A stretch of DNA of 61,908 nt, the filler included, from Nitrospinota bacterium (GTDB lineage Bacteria; JAUXIQ01), in assembly GCA_030620925.1 (NCBI GenBank). It is 10 parts of 10 records of this genome, joined end to end, with 100 filler letters (N's around TTAATTAATTAA, not from the genome) between each part and the next. Parts side by side here need not be neighbours in the genome. Positions count along the whole stretch, not along the records: positions 52,935 to 58,024 come from JAUXIQ010000184.1; 9 more parts are not named here. The stretch is one strand, 5' to 3'. Positions 1,978 through 58,124 of this stretch are shown here, one piece after another. Made by a program: the position numbers and the translations under genes. The first letter of the stretch is position 1. The number at the start of each line of letters is the position of its first letter. The notes beneath the pieces were generated by a model. The model did not search any database. It saw nothing but the letters and a program-made list of their open reading frames with translations, and was not told the origin of the DNA.

Positions 1978-4269
1978 TTATTCTTCGTTTTCCTTTTCGA
2001 GAGCTTTTAGTATCTTTTCAGGGGTTACGGGAAGGGTTTTAACCATCACCCCCAGGGCGTCGTAAACGGCGTTGGTTATCGCGGGCACGGTAGAGACCTG
2101 GACACCCTCACCCGATTCCTTGGCCCCAAAGGGCCCCACCGGGTCGATGGTCTCCACCGCCTCCGACTCGATGTCGGGCATATCCACGGCGGAGGGTAGC
2201 TTGTATTCCATGAACGAAGGATTGCTGGCCTGGCCGGTGTCCTTCCCCTTGATCTTGTCTTCCAGAAGCGCTTGTCCCAGGCCTCCGCAGACGGAGCCTT
2301 CAAGCTGCCCTTCCACATGCATGGGATTGATGGCCCGGCCACAGTCGTGCAGCACCTTCATGCGCGTGACCGTGATCTTGCCCGTATCCGTATCCACCTC
2401 GACTTCCGCCGCCTGCGCCCCGAAGCTGTAAGTGGCTGACATGTTGCCCTCGCCTGTCTCGTAGTTTGGCACCTCGAGTTCCGGAGCGAAATAGCCCCTG
2501 CCCATGATGGTCCTGCCCGTCCCTGAGTAGCATGCCGACTTCACCAGCTTGGTAAAAGGCATATTCTTTTCCGGGTCGTCCCTGACGAAGACCTGCTCAT
2601 TGCGGAAAACGAGCTCCTCCGGATGCGCACCCAACAGCTCGGCTCCCACTTCGGCCAACTGTTTCCGGGCGTCGTCGGCGGCTATCCACACGGCGTTACC
2701 GGATACGAAGGTTACTCTGCTGCCGAAGGTGCCGGGGTCGAGGGGGGTAACCTCGGAGTCGGGCATCACCAGCCGGACCTTATCCAGCCCCAGGCCGAGC
2801 ACCTCGGCGGCTATCTGTGAGAGACAACTGTCCGAGCCCTGCCCGGAGTCCGTGGCGCCGGTGAGGACGGATATGGCGCCGTCCTCATGGACTTTCACCA
2901 TCGCCCCCGCCGTGTTGTGTCCCGCCACCCGCGGCCCCGAGACGAACCCGTAAGCCCCGAATCCGATGCCGCGCTTTTTGTTGGGCGGCAGTTCTCCCCA
3001 CTCTTCGCGCCATTTCTTTATCTCGCCCGCTTTCTGGAGGCACTCGGTGAGGCCGCAACTGGTAATCCTGAACCCGTTGACCGTGTTATCCCCCGGCTGC
3101 AGGGCGTTCTTGAGCCGTATATCCAGTGGGTCTATGTCCAGCTCCCGGGCGATCATATCCAATTGCGACTCCGCCGCATAGCGCACCTGGGGGACGCCGT
3201 GCCCCCGCTGGGCACAGCAGACCTGGTTATTGGTATAGACCCGATAGCCGTCGTATTCTAGGTTGGGCACCCGGTAGGGCAGCGCCAGGACGGAGCCCAT
3301 GAGGTACCTTGTCATGCGGCCGATGCTGATATAAGCCCCTCCGTTGGCGACGATGCGGCACTTGATGGCCATGATGGTGCCGTCCTTACCGACGCCTGTC
3401 TTTATGTCCATAATGGTTGGATTGCGCTGCCGCCCGGCGGAGAGCACCTCTTCCTGGCCGTAGACGATCTTCACCGGTTTGCCCGTTTTCATGGAAAGGA
3501 GAGCGGCGGTGAAATCCAGCGAGAACATCTCGTTCTTACCCCCGAAGCCGCCGCCTATGAAAGGCTGCACGATGCGGACTTTGCTCAGCTCCAGGCCCAG
3601 GGCGCGGGGCATGTTGCGGTAGGTAAAATAGGGGCTCTGTTTGGAGCCCCAGAAGGTGATCTTGCCCGTGGAGTCGTAGGTCGCCAGCGCTGCGTGAGGC
3701 TCCAGGAAAGCATGGCAGACGGGCTGCGTCTCGAACCGGTCTTCGCGAACGCAGTCCGATCGCCTGAAACCGGCCTCCACGTCCCCGAAACGCATGGTGG
3801 ACTTGCAGGCGATATTGTTCGCCGCATGCTCATGAAGCAGGGGAGCGCCTTCTTCCATGGCCTCCAGTGGATCGAAAACCGCCGGCAGTAACTCGTATTC
3901 CACGTCGATCAGTTGCAGCGCCTCTTCAGCCGTATCCTCGTCTACCGCGGCCACCGCGGCAACCTCGTCGCCCACGAAGCGGACCTTTTCCGTTGCCAGG
4001 AAGGGTTCGTCTCCCTTGCCCAAAATGAGGTCCCCGTAGCGGTAGCCCAAAGTATCTTTGGCGGTGACCACCGCCTTCACCCCTTGCAGCCTCTCCGCCC
4101 TGCCGGTGTCGATGTTGAGAATCCTGGCATGAGGGTGCGGGCTCCTGAGCATCTTGCCATGAAGCATGCCCGGCAGTTCCATATCGGCGGCATACATCGC
4201 TTCCCCCGTGGCTTTCACCACGGCGTCCACGCGGGGCAGGCGTTTTCCCACTACGGTAAATTCTTCCAT
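1978..4269 (-). CDS. hcrA: Molybdopterin-binding large subunit, XDH family (HcrA-like)
   Basis: LRSPHPHARI, GGGFGGK, AQRGHG, GQG, GTFGSR and GAKESGE motifs; 763 aa; lies between hcrC-like and hcrB-like genes. Confidence 0.65.
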   Translation of the reverse strand: MEEFTVVGKRLPRVDAVVKATGEAMYAADMELPGMLHGKMLRSPHPHARILNIDTGRAERLQGVKAVVTAKDTLGYRYGDLILGKGDEPFLATEKVRFVGDEVAAVAAVDEDTAEEALQLIDVEYELLPAVFDPLEAMEEGAPLLHEHAANNIACKSTMRFGDVEAGFRRSDCVREDRFETQPVCHAFLEPHAALATYDSTGKITFWGSKQSPYFTYRNMPRALGLELSKVRIVQPFIGGGFGGKNEMFSLDFTAALLSMKTGKPVKIVYGQEEVLSAGRQRNPTIMDIKTGVGKDGTIMAIKCRIVANGGAYISIGRMTRYLMGSVLALPYRVPNLEYDGYRVYTNNQVCCAQRGHGVPQVRYAAESQLDMIARELDIDPLDIRLKNALQPGDNTVNGFRITSCGLTECLQKAGEIKKWREEWGELPPNKKRGIGFGAYGFVSGPRVAGHNTAGAMVKVHEDGAISVLTGATDSGQGSDSCLSQIAAEVLGLGLDKVRLVMPDSEVTPLDPGTFGSRVTFVSGNAVWIAADDARKQLAEVGAELLGAHPEELVFRNEQVFVRDDPEKNMPFTKLVKSACYSGTGRTIMGRGYFAPELEVPNYETGEGNMSATYSFGAQAAEVEVDTDTGKITVTRMKVLHDCGRAINPMHVEGQLEGSVCGGLGQALLEDKIKGKDTGQASNPSFMEYKLPSAVDMPDIESEAVETIDPVGPFGAKESGEGVQVSTVPAITNAVYDALGVMVKTLPVTPEKILKALEKENEE

Positions 4270-4281
4270 CGCTCCCCCTCC

Positions 4282-4746
4282 TCAGGCGGACTGCGCCGCC
4301 TGGATGGCCTCTATGATTTTAGCGTAGCCGGTGCACCTGCACAGGTTGCCCGATATGCCTACCCTGATTTCTTCTTTGGTGGGATTGGGATTGGAATCCA
4401 GCAGCGCCTTGGCGGTGAGAATCACCCCCGGCGTGCAGAACCCGCATTGAATGGCCCCGTGGTTGACGAACGCCTCTTGCAGGGGGTGCAGTCGGTCTTT
4501 GCTCTCGGCGAGGCCCTCTATAGTAACAATCTCCGCATCCTGGCACCTTACGGCAAGCAGCAGGCAGGAGAGCACGGCACGTCCGTCGAGTAGCACCGTG
4601 CAGGCGCCGCAGTCACCCGTGTCGCATCCTTTTTTGGTCCCCGTCAGCTTCAGTTCTTCCCGGATCACTTCCTGCAAGGTGCGCCAGGGAAATACGGCCA
4701 ACTCGTGAGTTTCACCGTTGACGTTCAAACTGATCAACTGCTTCAT
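4282..4746 (-). CDS. hcrC: 2[2Fe-2S] small subunit of an XDH-family enzyme (HcrC/CoxS-like)
   Basis: GCDTGDCGACTV, QCGFCTPG and GNLCRCTGY motifs; probable start ATG 4746 (MKQLISL). Confidence 0.7.
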   Translation of the reverse strand: MKQLISLNVNGETHELAVFPWRTLQEVIREELKLTGTKKGCDTGDCGACTVLLDGRAVLSCLLLAVRCQDAEIVTIEGLAESKDRLHPLQEAFVNHGAIQCGFCTPGVILTAKALLDSNPNPTKEEIRVGISGNLCRCTGYAKIIEAIQAAQSA

Positions 4747-4909
4747 CGCCCACCACCCCCTTTCTACGCCGTCGGTCAACCATGATGCTCGTCGGTTGTT
4801 AAGTTACTGTTAGACCCGCGAGCCCCGGCCCGCGCTCCACGCATTATACAATACAAAATCCGGTTATGTCCGCTAAAATGACGCCGCCTTTCTAATTTCC
4901 ATTTAACGG

Positions 4910-5503: not shown

Positions 5504-5603
5504 NNNNNNNNNNNNNNNNNNNNNNNNNNNNNNNNNNNNNNNNNNNNTTAATTAATTAANNNNNNNNNNNNNNNNNNNNNNNNNNNNNNNNNNNNNNNNN
5601 NNN
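5504..5603. other. Artificial contig spacer (N44-TTAATTAATTAA-N44); same spacer at 8494-8593, 15464-15563, 20585-20684, 25833-25932, 42388-42487, 48546-48645, 52835-52934 and 58025-58124
   Basis: Identical 100-nt N blocks with a six-frame stop linker; genes are truncated at these points. Confidence 0.99.
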
Positions 5604-8493: not shown

Positions 8494-8593
8494 NNNNNNN
8501 NNNNNNNNNNNNNNNNNNNNNNNNNNNNNNNNNNNNNTTAATTAATTAANNNNNNNNNNNNNNNNNNNNNNNNNNNNNNNNNNNNNNNNNNNN

Positions 8594-15437: not shown

Positions 15438-15724
15438 ATACCTCAACCTTTTCGCTCAGGATANNNNNNNNNNNNNNNNNNNNNNNNNNNNNNNNNNNNN
15501 NNNNNNNTTAATTAATTAANNNNNNNNNNNNNNNNNNNNNNNNNNNNNNNNNNNNNNNNNNNNTTTTCTCAGCCGAATTCCAGAATTCAGGCTGAATTTA
15601 AGAGTAACTTTCTCAAAGGGGTTTAACTTTACAGGTAATTCCATCTATGCTATCTTAAGTGGCAGGAGTCTTCCGAAGGGATGCTCGTTATGAATACGTA
15701 GCTACTCCACATCAGGAGGCGGTA

Positions 15725-20189: not shown

Positions 20190-20684
20190 ATCCCGCCTCT
20201 CAAAGGACAGCGATGAGCAGTGTTGATGGTCAGTGTGCCTTCTTTATAACGTTATAAAAGGTCCTCTATGACGCTCAAAGAGTTCTCACCAGAGTGATTA
20301 AGAATTCCCCATCGAGAGCACCTCCCTTTTATCGTGAATAACAACCCTTTATTATGCGGCGGGAAAACCCTGCGCGAAACCCGGACCGACCTCTTCCGGA
20401 TCAGGCCAGAGAAGAAGTTTATTCAACCTATTCAAGGGATTACACCGATAACCCGTGTATTTTGCAATTAACATTCTGCGATTTACTGTCGATATACTTA
20501 TTAAGAGAATAGAGGAAAGACGGAGCCGATTTAATACCTTTAAAACGATTAAACCATAACCGTTATTAACCGAAATGGAGAAAANNNNNNNNNNNNNNNN
20601 NNNNNNNNNNNNNNNNNNNNNNNNNNNNTTAATTAATTAANNNNNNNNNNNNNNNNNNNNNNNNNNNNNNNNNNNNNNNNNNNN

Positions 20685-25832: not shown

Positions 25833-25932
25833 NNNNNNNNNNNNNNNNNNNNNNNNNNNNNNNNNNNNNNNNNNNNTTAATTAATTAANNNNNNNNNNNN
25901 NNNNNNNNNNNNNNNNNNNNNNNNNNNNNNNN

Positions 25933-37856: not shown

Positions 37857-38729
37857 TTAGTTTTTCAGGGCTTCGACCATGGTGTCGCCGATATCCGCCG
37901 GGCTGGCGACCACTCTGATCCCCGCTTCTTTGAGGGTGGCCATTTTTTCCGAGGCGGTGCCCTTGCCTCCGGAGATGATGGCTCCGGCGTGCCCCATGCG
38001 GCGGCCGGGAGGAGCCGTCTGGCCGGCGATGAAGCTGACCACCGGTATGGTCAGATTTTCCTTTATCCACGCCGCAGCGTCCTCTTCCGCAGCGCCTCCT
38101 ATCTCGCCTATCATCACCACCGCCTCCGTCTGAGGATCGTCCTTGAAAAGTTTGAGGCAGTCGATGAAGTTCGTCCCTATGATGGGGTCTCCGCCTATAC
38201 CCACGCAGGTGGATTGGCCCAGCCCCCGGGCGGTGAGTTGCGCCACCGCTTCGTAGGTGAGGGTGCCGCTGCGGGAGATCACCCCTATGCCGCCCTCCTT
38301 GTGTATGAAGCCGGGCATAATCCCCACCTTGCATTTCCCGGGGGATATTACGCCGGGGCAGTTGGGTCCTATGAGCCTGAGCGGTTTATCCTTTATGAAT
38401 TTGTAGACTTCCACCATGTCCAGGGTGGGTATGCCTTCGGTTATGCACGCGATCACTCCCGTCCCCGCATCGGCGGCTTCCATAATGGCGTCGGCGGCGA
38501 AGGGGGGAGGGACGAAGATGATGGCGGCGTTGGCCCCTTCGTTCTTCACCGCATCGGCGACGGTGTTGAACACGGGGATACCTTCTGCTTCCTGCCCGCC
38601 CTTGCCCGGTGTCACCCCGGCTACCACCTTGGTGCCGTATTCCTTGCACTGCGCCGTGTGGAAGGAGCCTTCGCTGCCCGTGATGCCCTGGACCACAAGT
38701 CTGGTATTTTCATCCACCAGTATGCTCAT
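37857..38729 (-). CDS. sucD: Succinyl-CoA synthetase alpha subunit
   Basis: [21 protein letters not shown] and RMGHAGA (phospho-His) motifs. Confidence 0.97.
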
Positions 38730-38789
38730 TAATCGAACCTCCTCTATGTCAACAAAGGGGTATTTCTCCGCCCTGAGATGAATTAATTT

Positions 38790-39947
38790 TCAATTCGTTG
38801 CGGCCACGGCTTTTTCCGCGGCGTCCTTCAGGTCCTGTGCCACAACGAAGTTCAACCCCGAGCTGTTCAGTATCTCACCGCCCTCTTTGGCGTTGGTTCC
38901 CTCCAGCCTCACCACCACCGGCATGTCCACTTTCACCTGCTTCATGGCCTCGACCACCCCCTGGGCCACCCGGTCGCACCGCACGATGCCGCCGAAGATG
39001 TTTATGAGCACACCTTTGACGTTATCGTCGGACATCAGTATGCGGAAGGCGCTGGCCACCCGCTCCACGTTGGTGCCGCCGCCCACGTCCAGGAAGTTGG
39101 CGGGTTCTCCTCCCGCCAGCTTGATGATGTCCATGGTGGCCATGGCCAGCCCGGCGCCGTTCACCATGCAGCCGATGTTGCCGTCGAGCTTTATGTAGTT
39201 GAGGTCATATTCTGAAGCCTCTATTTCCAGGGGTTCCTCTTCGTCCAGGTCTCGCAGCTCTGTCGTGTCCTTATGCCGGTAGAGGGCGTTGTCGTCGAAG
39301 TTTATCTTGGCGTCAAGCGCCAGCAGGTCTCCCCCTTCAGTGATTACCAGGGGGTTGATTTCGGCCAGGGAGCAGTCGTTCTTGACGAAAGCGTCGAACA
39401 GAGCCTGCATGAATTTTACGCCTTTCCTGGATAGATCGCCTTCCAGCCCCAGCCCGTAAGCCAGTTTCCGGGCCTGGTAGGGCCGAAGCCCAAGGCCCGG
39501 GTCGGCGACTTCGGTTATTATCTTCTCGGGCGTATCGGCGGCCACCTGCTCGATCTCCATACCGCCCGCCTCGCTGACCATCATCACCGGAGCGGCGCTG
39601 TTCCTGTCTATGACCATGCCCAGGTAAAGCTCTTTCTGAATAGCCATGCCCTCTTCCACCAGGACGGTTTTGACTTTCTGTCCTTCGGGGCCGGTCTGAT
39701 GGGTTATCAGGTTCATGCCTATGATTTCCGAGGCGTACTGCTCGGCTTCGTCCGCATTTTTGGCCAGCTTGACGCCGCCTCCTTTGCCCCTTCCGCCGGC
39801 GTGTATCTGGGCCTTGACGACCACCGTACCGCCCAGCTCTTCGGCTATTTTTCTGGCTTCTTTGGGGTCGCTGGTGACTCTGCCCCTGGGAATGGGTACG
39901 CCGTGCCTGGCCAGAATCTCCTTTGCCTGGTACTCGTGAATCTTCAT
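38790..39947 (-). CDS. sucC: Succinyl-CoA synthetase beta subunit
   Basis: [34 protein letters not shown] and [10 protein letters not shown] motifs. Confidence 0.97.
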
Positions 39948-42387: not shown

Positions 42388-42487
42388 NNNNNNNNNNNNN
42401 NNNNNNNNNNNNNNNNNNNNNNNNNNNNNNNTTAATTAATTAANNNNNNNNNNNNNNNNNNNNNNNNNNNNNNNNNNNNNNNNNNNN

Positions 42488-46749: not shown

Positions 46750-48545
46750 ATGGCGAAAGCGGTCGCGAAGGAAAAGCTCAAGAAGGTACCCCAGGAAACG
46801 GGTTTCCTCAACGGCAACGAGATGGTGGCCGAGGCGGGCAGAGCTATCGACTTCCACATGATGGGTTATTTCCCCATCACCCCCTCCACGCAGATAGCTG
46901 AAGAACTGGACGCCATGAAGGCCGAAGGGCTGCACGATATAAAAATGATCGCCGGCGACGGTGAACACAGCGCGGCGGGGATATGCCTGGGCGCGGCGGC
47001 GGGCGGCGGCCGGATATTGAACGCCACCTCCGCTCAAGGACTGCTATTCGCGCTGGAGCAATTGCCCAGCCAGGCGGGACTCCGCTTTCCCATGGTGCTC
47101 AACGTGATCTGCCGGACCATCAACTCGCCCTTGAACATCCTGGGCGACCACAGCGATATCATGTTCGCCCTCAACACGGGTTGGATAATATTCATGGCCA
47201 GGGACCCCCAGATGGTCTACGACTTGAATTTCGCCGCCGTCAAGCTGGGGGAGCTGCAGGATGTCCGGCTGCCGGTGATCGTGGCTTCGGACGGGTTTTT
47301 CACCAGCCACCAGAAGCGGAAGGTCAGCCTGTTCAAAGAGAGCAAGGCGCTTAAAGACTGGCTGGGAAGCTACGACGCACCTTATCATGCCCTCGACCCG
47401 ACTAACCCCATCACCATCGGACCCTACATGAACGACCCCGACCTCATAAATAACAAGAAACAGCAGGCCATGGCCATGGAGGCCGCCTATCGCCATCTGC
47501 CCCGGGTGTTGAAAGAGTTAGGCACGCTCAGCGGCAGGAGCTACCCCATCGTGGAGACTTACAGGATGGAAGACGCCGAGGCGGCGCTGTTCATCCTCAA
47601 CACCGCCTACGACACCACCCGGGACGCCGTGGACCGCATGCGCGAGAAGGGCCTCAAGGTGGGGGTGGTAGCCACCAACGTGCTGCGACCCTTCCCTTTG
47701 AAAGAGATTCAGGATGCCTTGAAAAAGGTGAAAGCCCTCTGCGTGGCTGACCGGCAGGACAGCTACGGGGCATGGGGCGGCAACATGAGCCTGGAGATCA
47801 AGGCCGCCCTCAAGGACGACCCCGCTAACAAGACGCTTGTCTTCAGCCGCATCTACGGACTCGGCGGCAAGCAGTTCTACATAACGGAGGCCGAGGAGCT
47901 TCTGGGTCAGGCCCTGAAAGTATCTCTGGAGGGGAAGATAGATGTCCCTTACGACTACCTGGGTGCAGACCCCGGAGACCCCGGCTACGTTATGGAACGG
48001 GTGATGAAACCTTTCACGGCGGAAGACCTGGATAACGGCATCACCGTGGAAAAGAACCCTGATACGGGCAAGGTGGATGTCAAAGGCATAAACATCCGTC
48101 GGCTGACGGGCATGCCCAAACGCATCGCCCCCGGCCACGGCGCCTGCCCCGGCTGCGGCATATTCCCCAGCCTTAACCTGTTCCTGAAAGGCATCAAGGG
48201 CCATGTGGTGGTCCTCTTCCAGACCGGCTGCGCGGAGATAGTGACTTCCGGATTCCCCTTCAGCGCCCACAGGATGACTTACATTCACAACCTGTTCCAG
48301 AACGGGGCCGCCACACTGAGCGGCCTGGTGGAAATGTACCGTGAGCGCAAGAAGCGGGGCGAGATACCTCAAGACATGGAGATAACTTTCGTCATGGTCA
48401 GCGGTGATGGCGGGCTGGATATCGGCATGGGTTCACTGGTGGGCGCCGCATTGCGCAACCACCCCATGATTATCCTGGAATACGACAACCAGGGATACAT
48501 GAACACCGGCGATCAGCTCTCGCAGACCACCCCCCTGGGCCATTC
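46750..48545 (+). CDS. 2-oxoacid:ferredoxin oxidoreductase, fused alpha-beta subunit, 3' end truncated
   Basis: YFPITPS, EHSA and DGF.TSH alpha motifs, then ACPGC...TGC...GDGG...DNQGYMNTG beta motifs, in one frame. Confidence 0.9.
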
Positions 48546-48645
48546 NNNNNNNNNNNNNNNNNNNNNNNNNNNNNNNNNNNNNNNNNNNNTTAATTAATTA
48601 ANNNNNNNNNNNNNNNNNNNNNNNNNNNNNNNNNNNNNNNNNNNN

Positions 48646-52834: not shown

Positions 52835-52934
52835 NNNNNNNNNNNNNNNNNNNNNNNNNNNNNNNNNNNNNNNNNNNNTTAATTAATTAANNNNNNNNNN
52901 NNNNNNNNNNNNNNNNNNNNNNNNNNNNNNNNNN

Positions 52935-53712
52935 AAGGGTCGCCGGGGAAGATGAGGTCTGCGTTAAGATAATAGACGGAGCGTCCCCACTTTTTTTCCA
53001 GCAGGATACCGGCCGAAAAGTCCCACTCGCCGCTCCCGAAAGCTTTATCTTTATCGCCGGTGGGGATTTTCACCGCTCCCCGGACGCTGACCGCCGGAAA
53101 CCCGCCTTCCTTCACCAGCAACCGTTTGAGCCAGATAGACAAATCGCCCAGGCCGAAAACGTCTTCCCGGCCGGAGAGGAACGTCTGCCCTCCCTTGCTC
53201 AACCGGTAATCGAACTGGAATCCGGGCCGCTCCACCCTCAACCCTCGCTCCACGCCGGCAATCATCTCCAGGTCGAGTATGATATCGTCCATGAACCCGC
53301 GCCAGGTGTAGTAGAAAGGCAGTTCTATGCCCAGCTCGAGTCCGTTCCCGGCGCCGTAAACCAGGGTATAGGCGCTGCGGATGAACTCCATGTCGATTAC
53401 GACGTCTATATCGCCCGCGGTCTCTTCGTGGAGGACGTTTGACATGGCGATATCCAACCTTATCTCGTAATTGCCCCAGGGGAGAGGGATTGCCCTATCG
53501 GCAGGGGGTTGGAGGAAGAGCAGTTGTATGGGCTGTTGGTTTTTCCAGGGGAAAGGCCCCGGGTCGAAGTTCAGGCTCCGCCCCATCACGCTCGCTTGAG
53601 CGGTTGCGGAGAGGAGCGCGAGGGTGACGACTGCTATGAGCAATCCCCCGAGTATGGCTGATCGGCCGGACGTAAAGCTTTGCCCCGTTTTGCGCTGCCT
53701 GCGGTTATTCAA
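52935..53712 (-). CDS. Probable outer-membrane beta-barrel protein (DUF3187-like), 3' end truncated
   Basis: Signal peptide; GP...NQ.P; alternating beta strands; G.GD and K.PTG.....FGSG..D motifs. Confidence 0.6.
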
Positions 53713-53930
53713 ATAGATGCACCTATTCGGAAAAGGTCAAGACGTTCCTGCTTTTCTAAAGGATGGAAACGGGTTTTGCAAGGGAAAACTCGATTGATAC
53801 CGCTCGCTTCGATGAGGATACGGCTCCCTTGGGACACGCTGCGCGGCTGCAACTATCTGTTCCCAAAGGTTTATATTAAGGGTATAATGGCTCGTCTCTA
53901 TTCCGTTCATTTTTTGCAGGGAGGATAGAA

Positions 53931-55097
53931 ATGGCTGATACTAAATACGACGTGGTGGTGGTCGGCTGCGGGCCGGCGGGCTCGATGGCGGGCCGGTCGG
54001 CCGTCTTGAACGGCGCGAGCGTTCTTATCATCGAAAAAAAGAGCGCTATCGGTATCCCTAACCATTGTAATGAGTGTATAGCGGCGCCGCATCTATGGGA
54101 GGAACGGCTCGGCTTCAAGCTCAATCCCAGCGTCTATTCGCAGCGTATCACCAAATTCACCATCGTGGCGCCGTCGGGAGAGATGGCTCCGCCCCTGGAG
54201 AACGACTGCATCATGGTGGAACGCAACATTTTCGACCGCGCCCTGGCGGAGGAGGCCGTCCGCGCCGGTGCCCGCATCATGTTGAACACCAGGGTGGTGG
54301 ACGTTGTGAAAGAAGGGGATGCGGTAACCGGCGTGATGGTCCAGCGGGGAGACGTCAAAGAGAAGATAGGCGCGGGAGTTGTCATCGGTTGCGACGCCAA
54401 TAATATAGTGGCCCAGGCGGCGGGTATCCAGGGGCCGTATAACCCCAGCCATTGGTTGGTGAAGGAGTTTGCGGGTGTTAAGGGGCAGGACCCGGAGACC
54501 TGTTACACTTATATGAGCCCGCGGTTCGCCCCTGAGCTGCATGCGCCGCACATGCCCAAAGGGCCGGACACGGCGAACCTCTCGGTGGGTATACCCCAGG
54601 GCCACGACCTGACGCTAACAGATGCTTACGACGAGCTGATGAAACATCCCACGGTGAAAGAATTTTTCGGGGACGCAAGCCCGGTACGTATCTCCGGGGG
54701 GACGGCTCCCGGCGGCGGGTTGTGGCAGAAACCTTACGGTAACGGCGTGATGCTGGCCGGGGACGCAGCGGGACAAATGTGGGAAGCCAACGGCGGCGGC
54801 ATAAACCCGGCCATGATGGCGGGACATTTCGGGGGCGAAGTGGCGGCTAAAGCGGTGCAGCAGGGGGATACTTCGGAGGCGGTGCTGGCGGCTTATCATG
54901 AGAAATATCTCTCCACTATCGGTAAAACCAACGCCATCCAGCATGAGGCCAAGGAACTGTTGGACCGGGCTATCGTCTCGGATGAGCTCATCGAACGGGC
55001 GGTGACGGAGATAGGTAAAGAACTGGTGGGGCTGTATACCTACGCCCGCGGTTATACGGACGTAGTTCGAGACTGGCTTGAAGAGCAAAAAGCATGA
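53931..55097 (+). CDS. Geranylgeranyl reductase family FAD-dependent oxidoreductase
   Basis: DVVVVG.GPAG, EKK..IG.P..C.E, R..FD..LA..A...G and GDAAG......GGGI..A motifs. Confidence 0.85.
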   Translation: MADTKYDVVVVGCGPAGSMAGRSAVLNGASVLIIEKKSAIGIPNHCNECIAAPHLWEERLGFKLNPSVYSQRITKFTIVAPSGEMAPPLENDCIMVERNIFDRALAEEAVRAGARIMLNTRVVDVVKEGDAVTGVMVQRGDVKEKIGAGVVIGCDANNIVAQAAGIQGPYNPSHWLVKEFAGVKGQDPETCYTYMSPRFAPELHAPHMPKGPDTANLSVGIPQGHDLTLTDAYDELMKHPTVKEFFGDASPVRISGGTAPGGGLWQKPYGNGVMLAGDAAGQMWEANGGGINPAMMAGHFGGEVAAKAVQQGDTSEAVLAAYHEKYLSTIGKTNAIQHEAKELLDRAIVSDELIERAVTEIGKELVGLYTYARGYTDVVRDWLEEQKA

Positions 55098-55311
55098 GCA
55101 GGGGTGTAAGGCTGCAAGCCCCTGAAGGAAATATTTACTAACCCCGCCAATGGCGGTGATAGGCGAGTGTCCAGGGGGAACCGTTTTACAAAAGGGTTCC
55201 CACAGAGGGAGTTTGCGATAGAGGCTCAAAAAGCCTTCCTCAACGTTTTCCTCTTGACTGAAAGCACCCTGGACGATAGCCTGTATAGGCTTGTCGGAGA
55301 AAGGGAACACC

Positions 55312-55869
55312 ATGTATGAATACCGGGTACACGGACGAGGGGGACAAGGCGCCGTCGTGGGTTGCAAAGTTGCGGGCCTGGCGGCATCGCTTCAGGGTAT
55401 GCACGCCCTATCGCTGCCTCATTACGGGTTTGAGAGGCGTGGAGCGCCGGTTACCGTCTTCCTGCGTTTCAGCGATAGCCCGATAACCAACAGCAGCCGG
55501 GTCGACAACCCCGACGGTATCGTGGTGCTGGACCCCAAACTGTTGCAGCTTAAACAGTTGATAGTTCCCGGGTTGAAAAAAGGTGGCGTGGCCGTGCTCA
55601 ACACCAGGAAACCACCGCAAGAGATCGACCTGGAGGTTCCGTTATCGCGAGTGGCCACCGTTGACGCTACGGAAATAGCTCTCAGCACCATCGGCCGGCC
55701 CATCACCAATACCGCCATACTGGGCGCTTTCTGCGCCACCACGGACATACTGAAACTGGACTTCATCATCGAGGCCATAACCCGCCTGATGCCCGGCGCC
55801 AACCTTGACAAAAACCTGGAGGCCGTACGTATGGCCCACCAGAATACTGTAATAGAGCAGAGGGAATGA
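55312..55869 (+). CDS. 2-oxoacid:ferredoxin oxidoreductase gamma subunit (PorC/PadE-like)
   Basis: HGRGGQGAV, YG.ERRGAPV and NTA.LGA motifs. Confidence 0.9.
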   Translation: MYEYRVHGRGGQGAVVGCKVAGLAASLQGMHALSLPHYGFERRGAPVTVFLRFSDSPITNSSRVDNPDGIVVLDPKLLQLKQLIVPGLKKGGVAVLNTRKPPQEIDLEVPLSRVATVDATEIALSTIGRPITNTAILGAFCATTDILKLDFIIEAITRLMPGANLDKNLEAVRMAHQNTVIEQRE

Positions 55870-56156
55870 TAATGAGAGATGAAAAGCTCCCGACGGGGAT
55901 AGGCATACCGCTCACCGATGAGCTGATGCGGCAGGAAGTCGAGAGGTTGATGACCTGGTCGTGGCGCGTGTTCCGGCCCGAAGTGGACATGAGCAAATGC
56001 AAGATGTGCGGCATCTGCATCGAGTTCTGTCCGGAAGGGAACATGATCGAATACCAGGAACGCCTCTGCATCGATTACGAGATATGCAAAGGGTGCGGCG
56101 TCTGCGCCACGGAATGCCCCCATAAGGCCATCGACATGGTGCGGGAGGAGGACTGA
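55866..56156 (+). CDS. 2-oxoacid:ferredoxin oxidoreductase delta subunit, 2[4Fe-4S] (PorD/PadF-like)
   Basis: WR..RP..D..KC..C..C...CP and IDY..CKGCGVC..ECP motifs. Confidence 0.92.
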   Translation: MIMRDEKLPTGIGIPLTDELMRQEVERLMTWSWRVFRPEVDMSKCKMCGICIEFCPEGNMIEYQERLCIDYEICKGCGVCATECPHKAIDMVREED

Positions 56157-56158
56157 CC

Positions 56159-57370
56159 ATGGCTTCCAGAGCTCAAACCGCCGCCAGCCGGGAGACGGAA
56201 CAGACCGTTGATTTCCTCACCGGTAACGAAGCGGCGGCGCTTGCGGCGAAGATGGCCCGGGTGCAGGTCATCAGCGCTTATCCCATCACCCCCCAGACAA
56301 CCATAGTGGAAAAACTCGCTGAATATATCGCCAACGGCGACCTGGAAGCTCCCTGTATCAACGTGGAGGGGGAACACTCCTGCATGGCCGCCATATACGG
56401 GGCTTCCCTGACAGGCGCCCGCACCTTCACCGCCAGCAGCGGCCAGGGCATCGCCTACATGCACGAACAACTGTTCACCGTGCACAGCCAACGCCTGCCG
56501 GTGGTCATGGCCGTACCCAACCGCAACCTGGCCGCACATATTCTCTGCGACCACGGTGACACCATGGCCCAGAGCACTACGGGTTGGATGCAACTCTTCG
56601 CCGAGAACCAGCAGGAAGTATTGGATACCATCCTGCAGGCTTACAAGATAGCCGAGGATAAACGCGTGCTGATGCCTATAATGGTCTGTTACGATGGTTT
56701 CATAACCTCTCATACCGGCGCCACGATGAAAGTCCCCAGCCAGGAAGAAGTGGACAGTTTCCTCCCCTCCCGCGTAAACTACTACGATCAGGTGAACCCC
56801 GATGATCCGCTCGTTCTGCAGATTTTTCGCTACGATGTGATGCAGTTCGAGCGCGAGCACGATGAGGCACTGCAGGCGGCCAAAACCGTAATAGCCGAGG
56901 TCAACCGTGAGTACGATGAAATATTCGGCCGCACTTACGGGGACGGGCTGGTGGAGACTGTTCAGTGCGAAGACGCCGAAGCGGTGATTCTCACCTCCCA
57001 CTCCAGCGCGGGAATCGCCCGCACCGTGGTGGATGAGCTGCGGGGAGAAGGCGAGCGTATAGGGCTCATCAGGCTGCGCTCTTTCATTCCCTTCCCTCAG
57101 GAACGGATGCGCGACCTGCTGCCCGGTTTCAAGGCGGTGGCCGTGCTGGAGCGTAACGAGACACACGGCTCCGGCTGCGGCGAAATATACAAAGAGCTGC
57201 GGAGCGCGGCCTACGATCTCGATTCCAGGCCCAGGATACTCGATTTCATCGGCGGCCTGGGCGGAGCGGATATCACCATAGATCATGTGAGAAGCGTAGC
57301 CCGCGCCGCCCTCGAGGCGGCCAAAACGGGCAGCGTGGAGAAACAGGTAACCTGGCTCGACAAGCTTTGA
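56159..57370 (+). CDS. 2-oxoacid:ferredoxin oxidoreductase alpha subunit (PorA/PadG-like)
   Basis: GNEAAA, AYPITPQT, EGEHS, DGF.TSH and GLGG.DI motifs. Confidence 0.92.
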   Translation: MASRAQTAASRETEQTVDFLTGNEAAALAAKMARVQVISAYPITPQTTIVEKLAEYIANGDLEAPCINVEGEHSCMAAIYGASLTGARTFTASSGQGIAYMHEQLFTVHSQRLPVVMAVPNRNLAAHILCDHGDTMAQSTTGWMQLFAENQQEVLDTILQAYKIAEDKRVLMPIMVCYDGFITSHTGATMKVPSQEEVDSFLPSRVNYYDQVNPDDPLVLQIFRYDVMQFEREHDEALQAAKTVIAEVNREYDEIFGRTYGDGLVETVQCEDAEAVILTSHSSAGIARTVVDELRGEGERIGLIRLRSFIPFPQERMRDLLPGFKAVAVLERNETHGSGCGEIYKELRSAAYDLDSRPRILDFIGGLGGADITIDHVRSVARAALEAAKTGSVEKQVTWLDKL

Positions 57371-57421
57371 GTCCTTTTCGGGCGGGATGAACCCTGCCCC
57401 TATATCAAAAGGGTATTCCTT

Positions 57422-58024
57422 ATGGAACAGGAACCGACGTTTCAAGATTTCTACGGCAACCGGCTGACCATACCCCCCACGGTAGCCTGTCAGGGCTGCA
57501 CTGAAGTGCTCATAGGGCGGCAGGTCATAGAGACCATGGGTAAAGGGGTCTCCGTGATTTTTCCACCGTCCTGAGTGCCCTGGACCGGTCTGACCCGAGT
57601 CCCCTTGCGGTCGGCGATTTTCGGTTCCGCCGCCGCAGCCGCTTCAGGAGTGGTTGAGGGATACCGGGCCACCGGTCGGGACGACGTGACCGTCGTCGTG
57701 ATCGCAGGAGACGGGGGAACGCACGATATCGGGCTGCAATCCCTTTCGGGGGCGGCCGAGCGGGGCGATTCCTTCATCTGGATTTGCCAGAACAACGAGG
57801 CTTACATGAATACCGGCGGCCAGCGCAGCGGCGCCACGCCCAAATGGGCGCGCACGACCAACACGCCGGTGGGTAGCGTCATCAAGGGGAAACCTCAATG
57901 GGGTAAAGACATGATAGCCATCATGGAGGCCCATGATCTCCCATACATAGCCCAGGCCTCAGTTTCCCACATGAAAGATTTCAAGCGAAAAATCAAGAAG
58001 GCACACCAGATTACGGGCCGGGAA
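57422..58024 (+). CDS. 2-oxoacid:ferredoxin oxidoreductase beta subunit (PorB/PadI-like) with in-frame TGA at 57572-57574 (candidate Sec); 3' end truncated
   Basis: From ATG 57422: MEQEPTFQDFYGNRLTIPPTVACQGCTEVLIGRQVIETMGKGVSVIFPPS*VPWTG..., continuing in frame into the GDGG...NNEAYMNTG TPP motif. Confidence 0.9.
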
Positions 58025-58124
58025 NNNNNNNNNNNNNNNNNNNNNNNNNNNNNNNNNNNNNNNNNNNNTTAATTAATTAANNNNNNNNNNNNNNNNNNNN
58101 NNNNNNNNNNNNNNNNNNNNNNNN

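Follow-up and report, generated by a model that had tools for sequence, protein, structure and literature searches.

Organization of the oxidoreductase operon

The window, i.e. the whole 61,908-nt stretch of DNA analysed here (Nitrospinota bacterium, GenBank assembly GCA_030620925.1), includes a contig at positions 52935–58024 (JAUXIQ010000184.1) that carries a four-gene operon for a 2-oxoacid:ferredoxin oxidoreductase (OFOR) in the order gamma-delta-alpha-beta. The subject of this study is the last of these genes, that for the beta subunit, in which codon 51 is an in-frame TGA (57572–57574, +). On the basis of alignments, an orthologue and contigs from public sequencing runs, this codon is proposed to specify selenocysteine (Sec) in the column of the third invariant cysteine ligand of an iron-sulfur cluster.

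The gamma subunit gene (PorC/KorC type; 55291–55869, +) was identified by PF01558 (4e-37) and TIGR02175 (181.6 bits, above the cut-off), and the delta subunit gene (55866–56156, +), encoding a ferredoxin with two [4Fe-4S] clusters, by Fer4 families and TIGR02179 (83.6 bits, above the cut-off). The alpha subunit gene (56159–57370, +) matched PF01855 and PF17147 and scored 415 bits with PorA_Arch, under the cut-off of 550; it ends in an ordinary TGA stop. The first 201 codons of the beta subunit gene (PorB/VorB type) occupy 57422–58024 (+), and their product aligned with the solved chains 9bt4_C (E 8e-57) and 5c4i_C (E 4e-45) of the PDB. Its thiamine pyrophosphate (TPP) domain was recognized by PF02775 (1e-17), with GDGG at residues 96–99 and NN at residues 124–125. 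The scores with the substrate-specific models VorB (297.7 bits) and PorB (292.7 bits) were both under the cut-offs of 405 and therefore indicate only membership of the superfamily, PorB/VorB-like.

As the preliminary description of this DNA had stated, the beta frame can be read from ATG 57422 (...VACQGC...VSVIFPPS) through the TGA into VPWTGLTR...GDGGTHDIG...CQNNEAYMNTG, and it is open to 58024 with no further stop or frameshift. CQGC (57488–57499, +) provides the first two [4Fe-4S] cysteine ligands (C23 and C26), whose columns are invariant in 114 sequences, and the TPP-binding motif GDGG...NNEAYMNTG lies at 57707–57817 (+), with invariant columns G98/D99/G100...N127 (numbering of the orthologue L001, see below). 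The start of this gene at GTG 57575 in the mechanical list of open reading frames (ORFs), also noted earlier, was confirmed. Full-length beta orthologues have 301 residues. The contig stops at 58024 and is followed by an artificial N...TTAATTAATTAA...N linker at 58025–58124; because the linker begins at 58025, the beta gene is truncated by the contig end and not decayed.

Conservation of the TGA codon and its column

At least part of the stretch was present in 20 public runs of 15 studies, comprising marine sediment, cold seep and marine metagenomes; no run of RNA type is listed among them. Contigs from four runs (four studies) were aligned to 57300–58024. The TGA was spanned in 4/4 runs, by one contig in each, and no difference was found there, neither TGC nor TGT, versus eight variable positions elsewhere in the stretch. 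Since contigs of four studies have the same codon, the TGA is not an artefact of one assembly. Contig depth rose several-fold at 57775–57849 because the conserved region of the TPP motif (NNEAYMNTG) attracts contigs from many other organisms; the rise does not reflect copy number.

Scanning one genome per prokaryotic species revealed a single close relative, L001, which is a contig from a metagenome-assembled genome (MAG) labelled uncultured Nitrospinota and shows 86% identity over residues 1–201. Its OFOR genes are in the same gamma-delta-alpha-beta order, and its beta gene reads SVIFPPS*VPWTG, with the TGA in the same column and the rest open across 301 codons. The 52-residue N-terminal piece of this orthologue (L001 1908–2066, P0127) was named 'xanthosine utilization system XapX-like protein' by one source, evidently a mis-annotation that arose from the splitting of the gene at the TGA.

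The four closest database proteins (96, 87, 88 and 85% identity) cover 62–75% of the query and begin either at the residue that follows the TGA column (M/VPWTG...) or at an ATG further downstream, and proteins at 65% identity or less are full-length with PPSCGAW or PASCGGW at this column. When the 50 N-terminal residues were used as the query, 4/4 matches ended in ...IFPPS, as did four further members of their clusters (8/8 in total, 79–98% identity). Another member of these clusters, P0125 (392 residues), was rejected as unrelated, a clustering artefact. The shared longest-contig values (3505, 3749, 5968 and 8244) suggest that the N- and C-terminal pieces lie on the same contigs. The expected alternation of TGA and Cys among homologues is thereby seen between the closest forms and the distant ones. 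A metagenome scan yielded no third DNA lineage with the TGA, as all of its matches were Cys forms with no more than 61% identity.

To describe the column, the L001 protein, with C entered for the TGA, was aligned with 113 of the 120 best matches; the four proteins beginning downstream of the TGA and three short proteins (P0024, P0029 and P0076) were left out. The TGA column was Cys in 113/113 full-length homologues, and by eye in the three short proteins too. In the whole alignment of 114 sequences, the only invariant Cys columns were C23, C26, C53 (the TGA column) and C216 in L001 numbering, in agreement with the earlier placement of the TGA on the third cluster cysteine. The fourth Cys (NTCPTGW) lies beyond the end of the window contig, and it is present in L001 and in the run-contig continuation from 58023. 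In alignments with solved structures, the TGA column coincided with the 'ptgC' Cys of the beta subunit of pyruvate:ferredoxin oxidoreductase (PFOR; 9bt4_C) and of oxalate oxidoreductase (5c4i_C); in the PFOR of D. africanus (1b0p), its counterpart was the third Cys following CxxC. The cluster ligands of this last enzyme are presumably residues 812, 815, 840 and 1071, numbers that a literature look-up did not confirm. As far as the accessible parts of two papers go, four Cys are conserved in the OFOR beta subunit, two of them in a CX2C motif, and these are believed to coordinate the third [4Fe-4S] cluster (PMC4058850, PMC10052474). The four invariant Cys columns of the alignment correspond to these ligands. 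In the present protein, the four-ligand cluster pattern would be complete only with Sec at the TGA. The window holds a second OFOR gene at 46750–48597 (+; ORF of 615 amino acids), which reads CPGC...QTGC from 48145 with the same spacing and an ordinary Cys in the TGA column, as had been described.

Selection was estimated between the window and L001 from synonymous divergence (dS) and the ratio of nonsynonymous to synonymous divergence (dN/dS). The 50 codons upstream of the TGA gave a dS of 0.75 and a dN/dS of 0.08, and the 149 codons downstream a dS of 0.98 and a dN/dS of 0.066. Purifying selection is seen on both sides of the TGA and a decaying gene is excluded; from these comparisons, both parts would be translated and needed. 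A maximum-likelihood tree was built from 36 rows, consisting of 7 TGA or split forms together with 29 Cys forms chosen among the best matches. All seven TGA or split forms fell into a single clade (support 100/99) with four sublineages, whose sister was a Cys form (P0003, Tectomicrobia MAG). A single TGA clade that is sister to a Cys form fits one origin, i.e. one change from Cys to TGA that appears to have been kept since then.

The upstream neighbour of the operon on the same strand is a gene for a flavin adenine dinucleotide (FAD)-dependent oxidoreductase of the geranylgeranyl-reductase family (53931–55097, +), which matched FAD_binding_3 and other Pfam families and scored 145 bits with NCBIfam TIGR02032, under the cut-off of 158.8. 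Nine linkers (N runs around TTAATTAATTAA) join the ten contigs of the window, at 5504–5603, 8494–8593, 15464–15563, 20585–20684, 25833–25932, 42388–42487, 48546–48645, 52835–52934 and 58025–58124. As the contigs are joined artificially, gene order across the linkers is meaningless and ORFs that touch them are cut.

Assignment of the TGA codon

The genes for Sec synthesis and insertion were searched in G001, the genome of L001 (3.1 Mb, fragmented), which is a close relative of the window organism (90% identity for SucC and 79% for PorA, the alpha subunit). In G001, selA (614 bits) and selB (393 bits) adjoin each other and score above the cut-offs, and selD (213 bits), likewise above its cut-off, contains an in-frame TGA of its own at the canonical GGG*ACK site. 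This selD is itself a selenoprotein gene (GGG*ACKIG; L028, about 1530–1565) with a clean 7-bp hairpin, whose GGAC loop lies 24 nt away from the U of its UGA. With the FdhA model, G001 yielded 23 molybdopterin matches, all of them sub-threshold and none with an internal stop; with FlpD it yielded no match. G001 has many OFOR paralogues: beyond the orthologue, there are five alpha-like matches below 1e-50 and three stop-free beta-like genes 43–44% identical to the query. The TGA is carried by only one of its OFORs. According to the accessible part of the BSepDB report, MAGs labelled Nitrospinota (GTDB UBA8248) are among the most selenoprotein-rich bacteria, with 48–54 genes, a group to which G001 may belong.

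Taking these results together, we consider it probable that the beta subunit is truly a selenoprotein, that Sec51 serves as the third ligand of its [4Fe-4S] cluster, and that the protein represents a new selenoprotein family. The selenoprotein OFOR put forward in the preliminary description is supported by the column, its conservation, the two-sided selection, and selA, selB and selD of G001. In this proposal, 57422–58024 would encode the beta subunit of a four-subunit OFOR and codon 51 would be translated as Sec. The Sec would replace the third of four cluster-holding Cys in the cluster to which the TPP-bound intermediate passes its electrons, and the resulting cluster would have three thiolate ligands and one selenolate. 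We infer that the TGA is decoded by SelB and tRNA-Sec and that the selenolate binds iron. By analogy, and as speculation, the selenolate might tune the potential or the oxidant sensitivity of the cluster, or it might favour resistance to oxidation or repair after it, as argued for [NiFeSe] hydrogenases.

Several observations weigh against this assignment. At the DNA level, the TGA is known from two diverged lineages plus strain variants, and the other lineages are represented by protein only. In both DNA sequences, the TGA is directly followed by GTG, a possible restart codon. A codon-usage-filtered scan of the window gave no further convincing selenoprotein gene; this screen is insensitive, as it missed porB itself at its thresholds. 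tRNA-Sec was not found in the fragmented G001 assembly, where the RF01852 matches proved to be tRNA-Trp, tRNA-Ser and other ordinary tRNAs by ARAGORN; no tRNA adjoins selA, selB or selD in this genome, and there was none in the window. Hence, among the Sec genes named at the outset for a search, selA, selB and selD were recovered in the relative and tRNA-Sec was not.

The remaining observations of this kind concern the Sec insertion sequence (SECIS). Two hairpins described earlier as compatible with a bacterial SECIS do exist in the window: hairpin 1 (57582–57602, +), with 7 bp, a bulged A and the loop UCUGAC (dG -8.7), and hairpin 2 (57595–57624, +), with a GGUCG loop at +38 (dG -6.8). They were not supported as SECIS in the form proposed, and the candidates differ between the two DNA sequences. 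In L001, hairpin 1 has lost one pair and only its upper 4 bp fold (-4.3); hairpin 2 keeps its lower stem via an A-U to G-U change, and amino-acid changes have abolished the upper stem together with the GGUCG loop. The local fold at +10 to +39 was also unremarkable against 1500 synonymous-codon randomisations, of which 305 (window) and 1029 (L001) reached the observed energy, versus just 36 of 1500 for the selD hairpin of G001 as the positive control. Dinucleotide-shuffle z-scores for downstream folding ranged from -1.37 to +1.59. The Rfam SECIS families had no match in the window, L001 or L028; they missed the known selD site too and are hence uninformative. There is no convincing canonical SECIS for the beta-gene TGA, and this is the weak point of the assignment.

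A possible larger structure emerged from a two-sequence fold of 135 nt. In the RNAalifold consensus, a 20-bp helix pairs a 5' arm at 57579–57605 (+) with a 3' arm at 57657–57679 (+), and is followed by a perfect 7-bp hairpin at 57680–57697 (+), an inverted repeat in the coding region (Asp-Asp/Val-Val codons) whose sole substitution relative to the orthologue is in the loop. All three substitutions in the 5' arm are at unpaired positions, and the 3' arm lies inside a run of 14 unchanged degenerate codons, the longest of its kind (376/20000 shuffles reach it). The arm-to-arm duplex had energies of -33.0 and -36.5 kcal/mol; in six genes of the Cys form, including four that are near-identical, the range was -15.6 to -21.9. 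On the contrary side, 133 and 61 of 1500 codon randomisations attained the energies of the duplex, and 39 and 30 of 1500 that of the 57680–57697 hairpin. The long-range helix, modelled from two sequences only, is at most suggestive. That Sec would be inserted via this structure of about 100 nt, in which 57579–57605 pairs with 57657–57679 (80 nt on) ahead of the 57680–57697 hairpin, and not via a canonical short hairpin, is a tentative proposal that we regard as rather unlikely. If true, it would be a new bacterial SECIS architecture serving a natural selenolate-ligated [4Fe-4S] cluster beside TPP.

The main rival explanation is a conserved split gene, in which a 50-residue CxxC peptide would be released at the TGA, translation would restart at GTG 57575 to give a TPP-binding chain of about 250 residues, and the two pieces would assemble around a cluster held by three Cys and another ligand. 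The GTG that adjoins the TGA in both DNA sequences agrees with such a restart, gene callers yield exactly these two products, the two-sided purifying selection is equally compatible with it, and so is the lack of a clear SECIS. However, the break would have to hit, out of about 300 columns, one of the only four with an invariant Cys and would take away a cluster ligand, 0/113 aligned full-length homologues are split, and no Shine-Dalgarno-like purine run precedes GTG 57575, where the Val is no proof of a start codon. With the Sec pathway present in the genome of the relative as well, we judge the split gene to be improbable.

A second rival is the recoding of UGA to a standard residue, either by low-level near-cognate read-through or by the delivery of Cys. 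In the latter system, Cys is delivered at UGA by a SelB-like factor with a Cys-accepting selC-like tRNA. This would satisfy the need of the column for a Cys-like ligand, and it agrees with the results for tRNA-Sec in G001 and for a canonical SECIS. Against it, selA and the Sec-containing selD of G001 serve selenocysteine synthesis, Trp or Arg as a cluster ligand would probably be non-functional, and nothing points to a second recoding system; hence, standard-residue recoding appears quite improbable, more so than the split gene.

A pseudogene, a private nonsense mutation or a sequencing error would explain why one in-frame stop interrupts a gene with homologues that carry intact annotations, but it is refuted for practical purposes by the same codon in contigs of four studies and in the orthologue at a dS of about 0.9, by dN/dS values of 0.07–0.08 on either side, by the same-column stop in 8/8 N-terminal fragments, and by the grouping of all TGA forms in one clade with four sublineages. 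Finally, the use of TGA as a sense codon genome-wide (genetic code 4 or 25), for which there is nothing beyond the single beta-gene codon, is refuted: TGA ends 15/35 window ORFs of at least 250 amino acids as an ordinary stop, including the alpha gene just upstream, which excludes a reassigned code, and the other long-flanked in-frame TGAs are gene junctions.

Those TGAs, at 4284(-) and 38792(-), were considered as Sec sites and rejected. The former parts a same-frame pair at 1978–4779 (-), the [2Fe-2S] small and molybdopterin large subunits of a xanthine-dehydrogenase-family enzyme. The latter parts SucC and SucD at 37857–39947 (-). Both are ordinary junctions despite their read-through look.

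Comparison with known systems

We searched the literature for OFORs among known selenoproteins. A 2026 review tabulates 119 prokaryotic selenoprotein families and subfamilies (PMC13188914); its text and table contain no OFOR or TPP enzyme, and the sole occurrence of 'pyruv' is in the title of a reference on proline reductase. The protein accordingly stands outside the classical selenoprotein families, as had been supposed. The main texts of the deep-Sep and BSepDB reports mention neither OFOR nor iron-sulfur terms, the supplementary tables being outside this scope, and no description of a Sec-containing OFOR was found in literature listings and abstracts, a scope that left out subscription journals, or in the accessible part of one candidate paper. 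Most likely, judging from the sequence evidence, the OFOR beta enzyme is an undescribed selenoprotein with an iron-sulfur cluster held partly by selenium. Sec at predicted Fe-S sites is precedented as a prediction, and what would be new here is an OFOR selenoprotein family.

OFORs are central to anaerobic carbon metabolism and CO2 fixation, and the cluster of the beta subunit is the first electron acceptor from the TPP radical intermediate. If the proposal is true, this natural swap of Se for S at a cluster ligand would show how ligand chemistry sets potential, electron-transfer rate and oxygen sensitivity, and it would offer a 77Se spectroscopic handle on the beta-subunit cluster. A TPP enzyme of core metabolism would then join a list of selenoproteins dominated by thiol-redox proteins. 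A firmly conserved Sec codon with no obvious SECIS would also be a notable case for selenium biology. Annotation now splits such genes into a 'hypothetical' protein of about 50 residues and a truncated 'thiamine pyrophosphate-dependent enzyme'.

Among known selenoproteins, the HgcB, Fe-S-domain and 2Fe-2S-binding families have Sec at or next to predicted Fe-S positions, as inferred from Cys homologues in the accessible part of the review (PMC13188914). They resemble the present protein in having Sec at a predicted Fe-S site, but none of them, as far as that part goes, is a TPP enzyme or an OFOR. HdrA of Methanococcus shares with it the presence of Sec in an Fe-S protein of low-potential electron transfer, a flavoprotein in that case. 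According to the accessible part of a 2026 cryo-electron microscopy study, Sec197 of HdrA forms a Cys-Sec pair between the cluster and FAD and is not a cluster ligand (PMC13518236).

FdhA, with Sec on Mo/W, and the [NiFeSe] hydrogenase, with Sec on Ni, have in common with the OFOR beta subunit that Sec stands for a metal-binding Cys, that Cys homologues are the majority, and that the Sec forms are a small clade in Sec-rich anaerobes. In contrast to the catalytic Mo/W or Ni of those enzymes, the metal site here would be a [4Fe-4S] electron-transfer cluster, with no canonical SECIS detected. The closest likeness in architecture is to PorGDAB and VorGDAB and to the solved chains 9bt4_C and 5c4i_C, which agree with the present enzyme in gene order, in the TPP motif, in the CxxC...x24...C...C pattern and in a full-length alignment with these chains. 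The difference from PorGDAB and VorGDAB lies in the codon of the third ligand, which is Cys there and TGA here.

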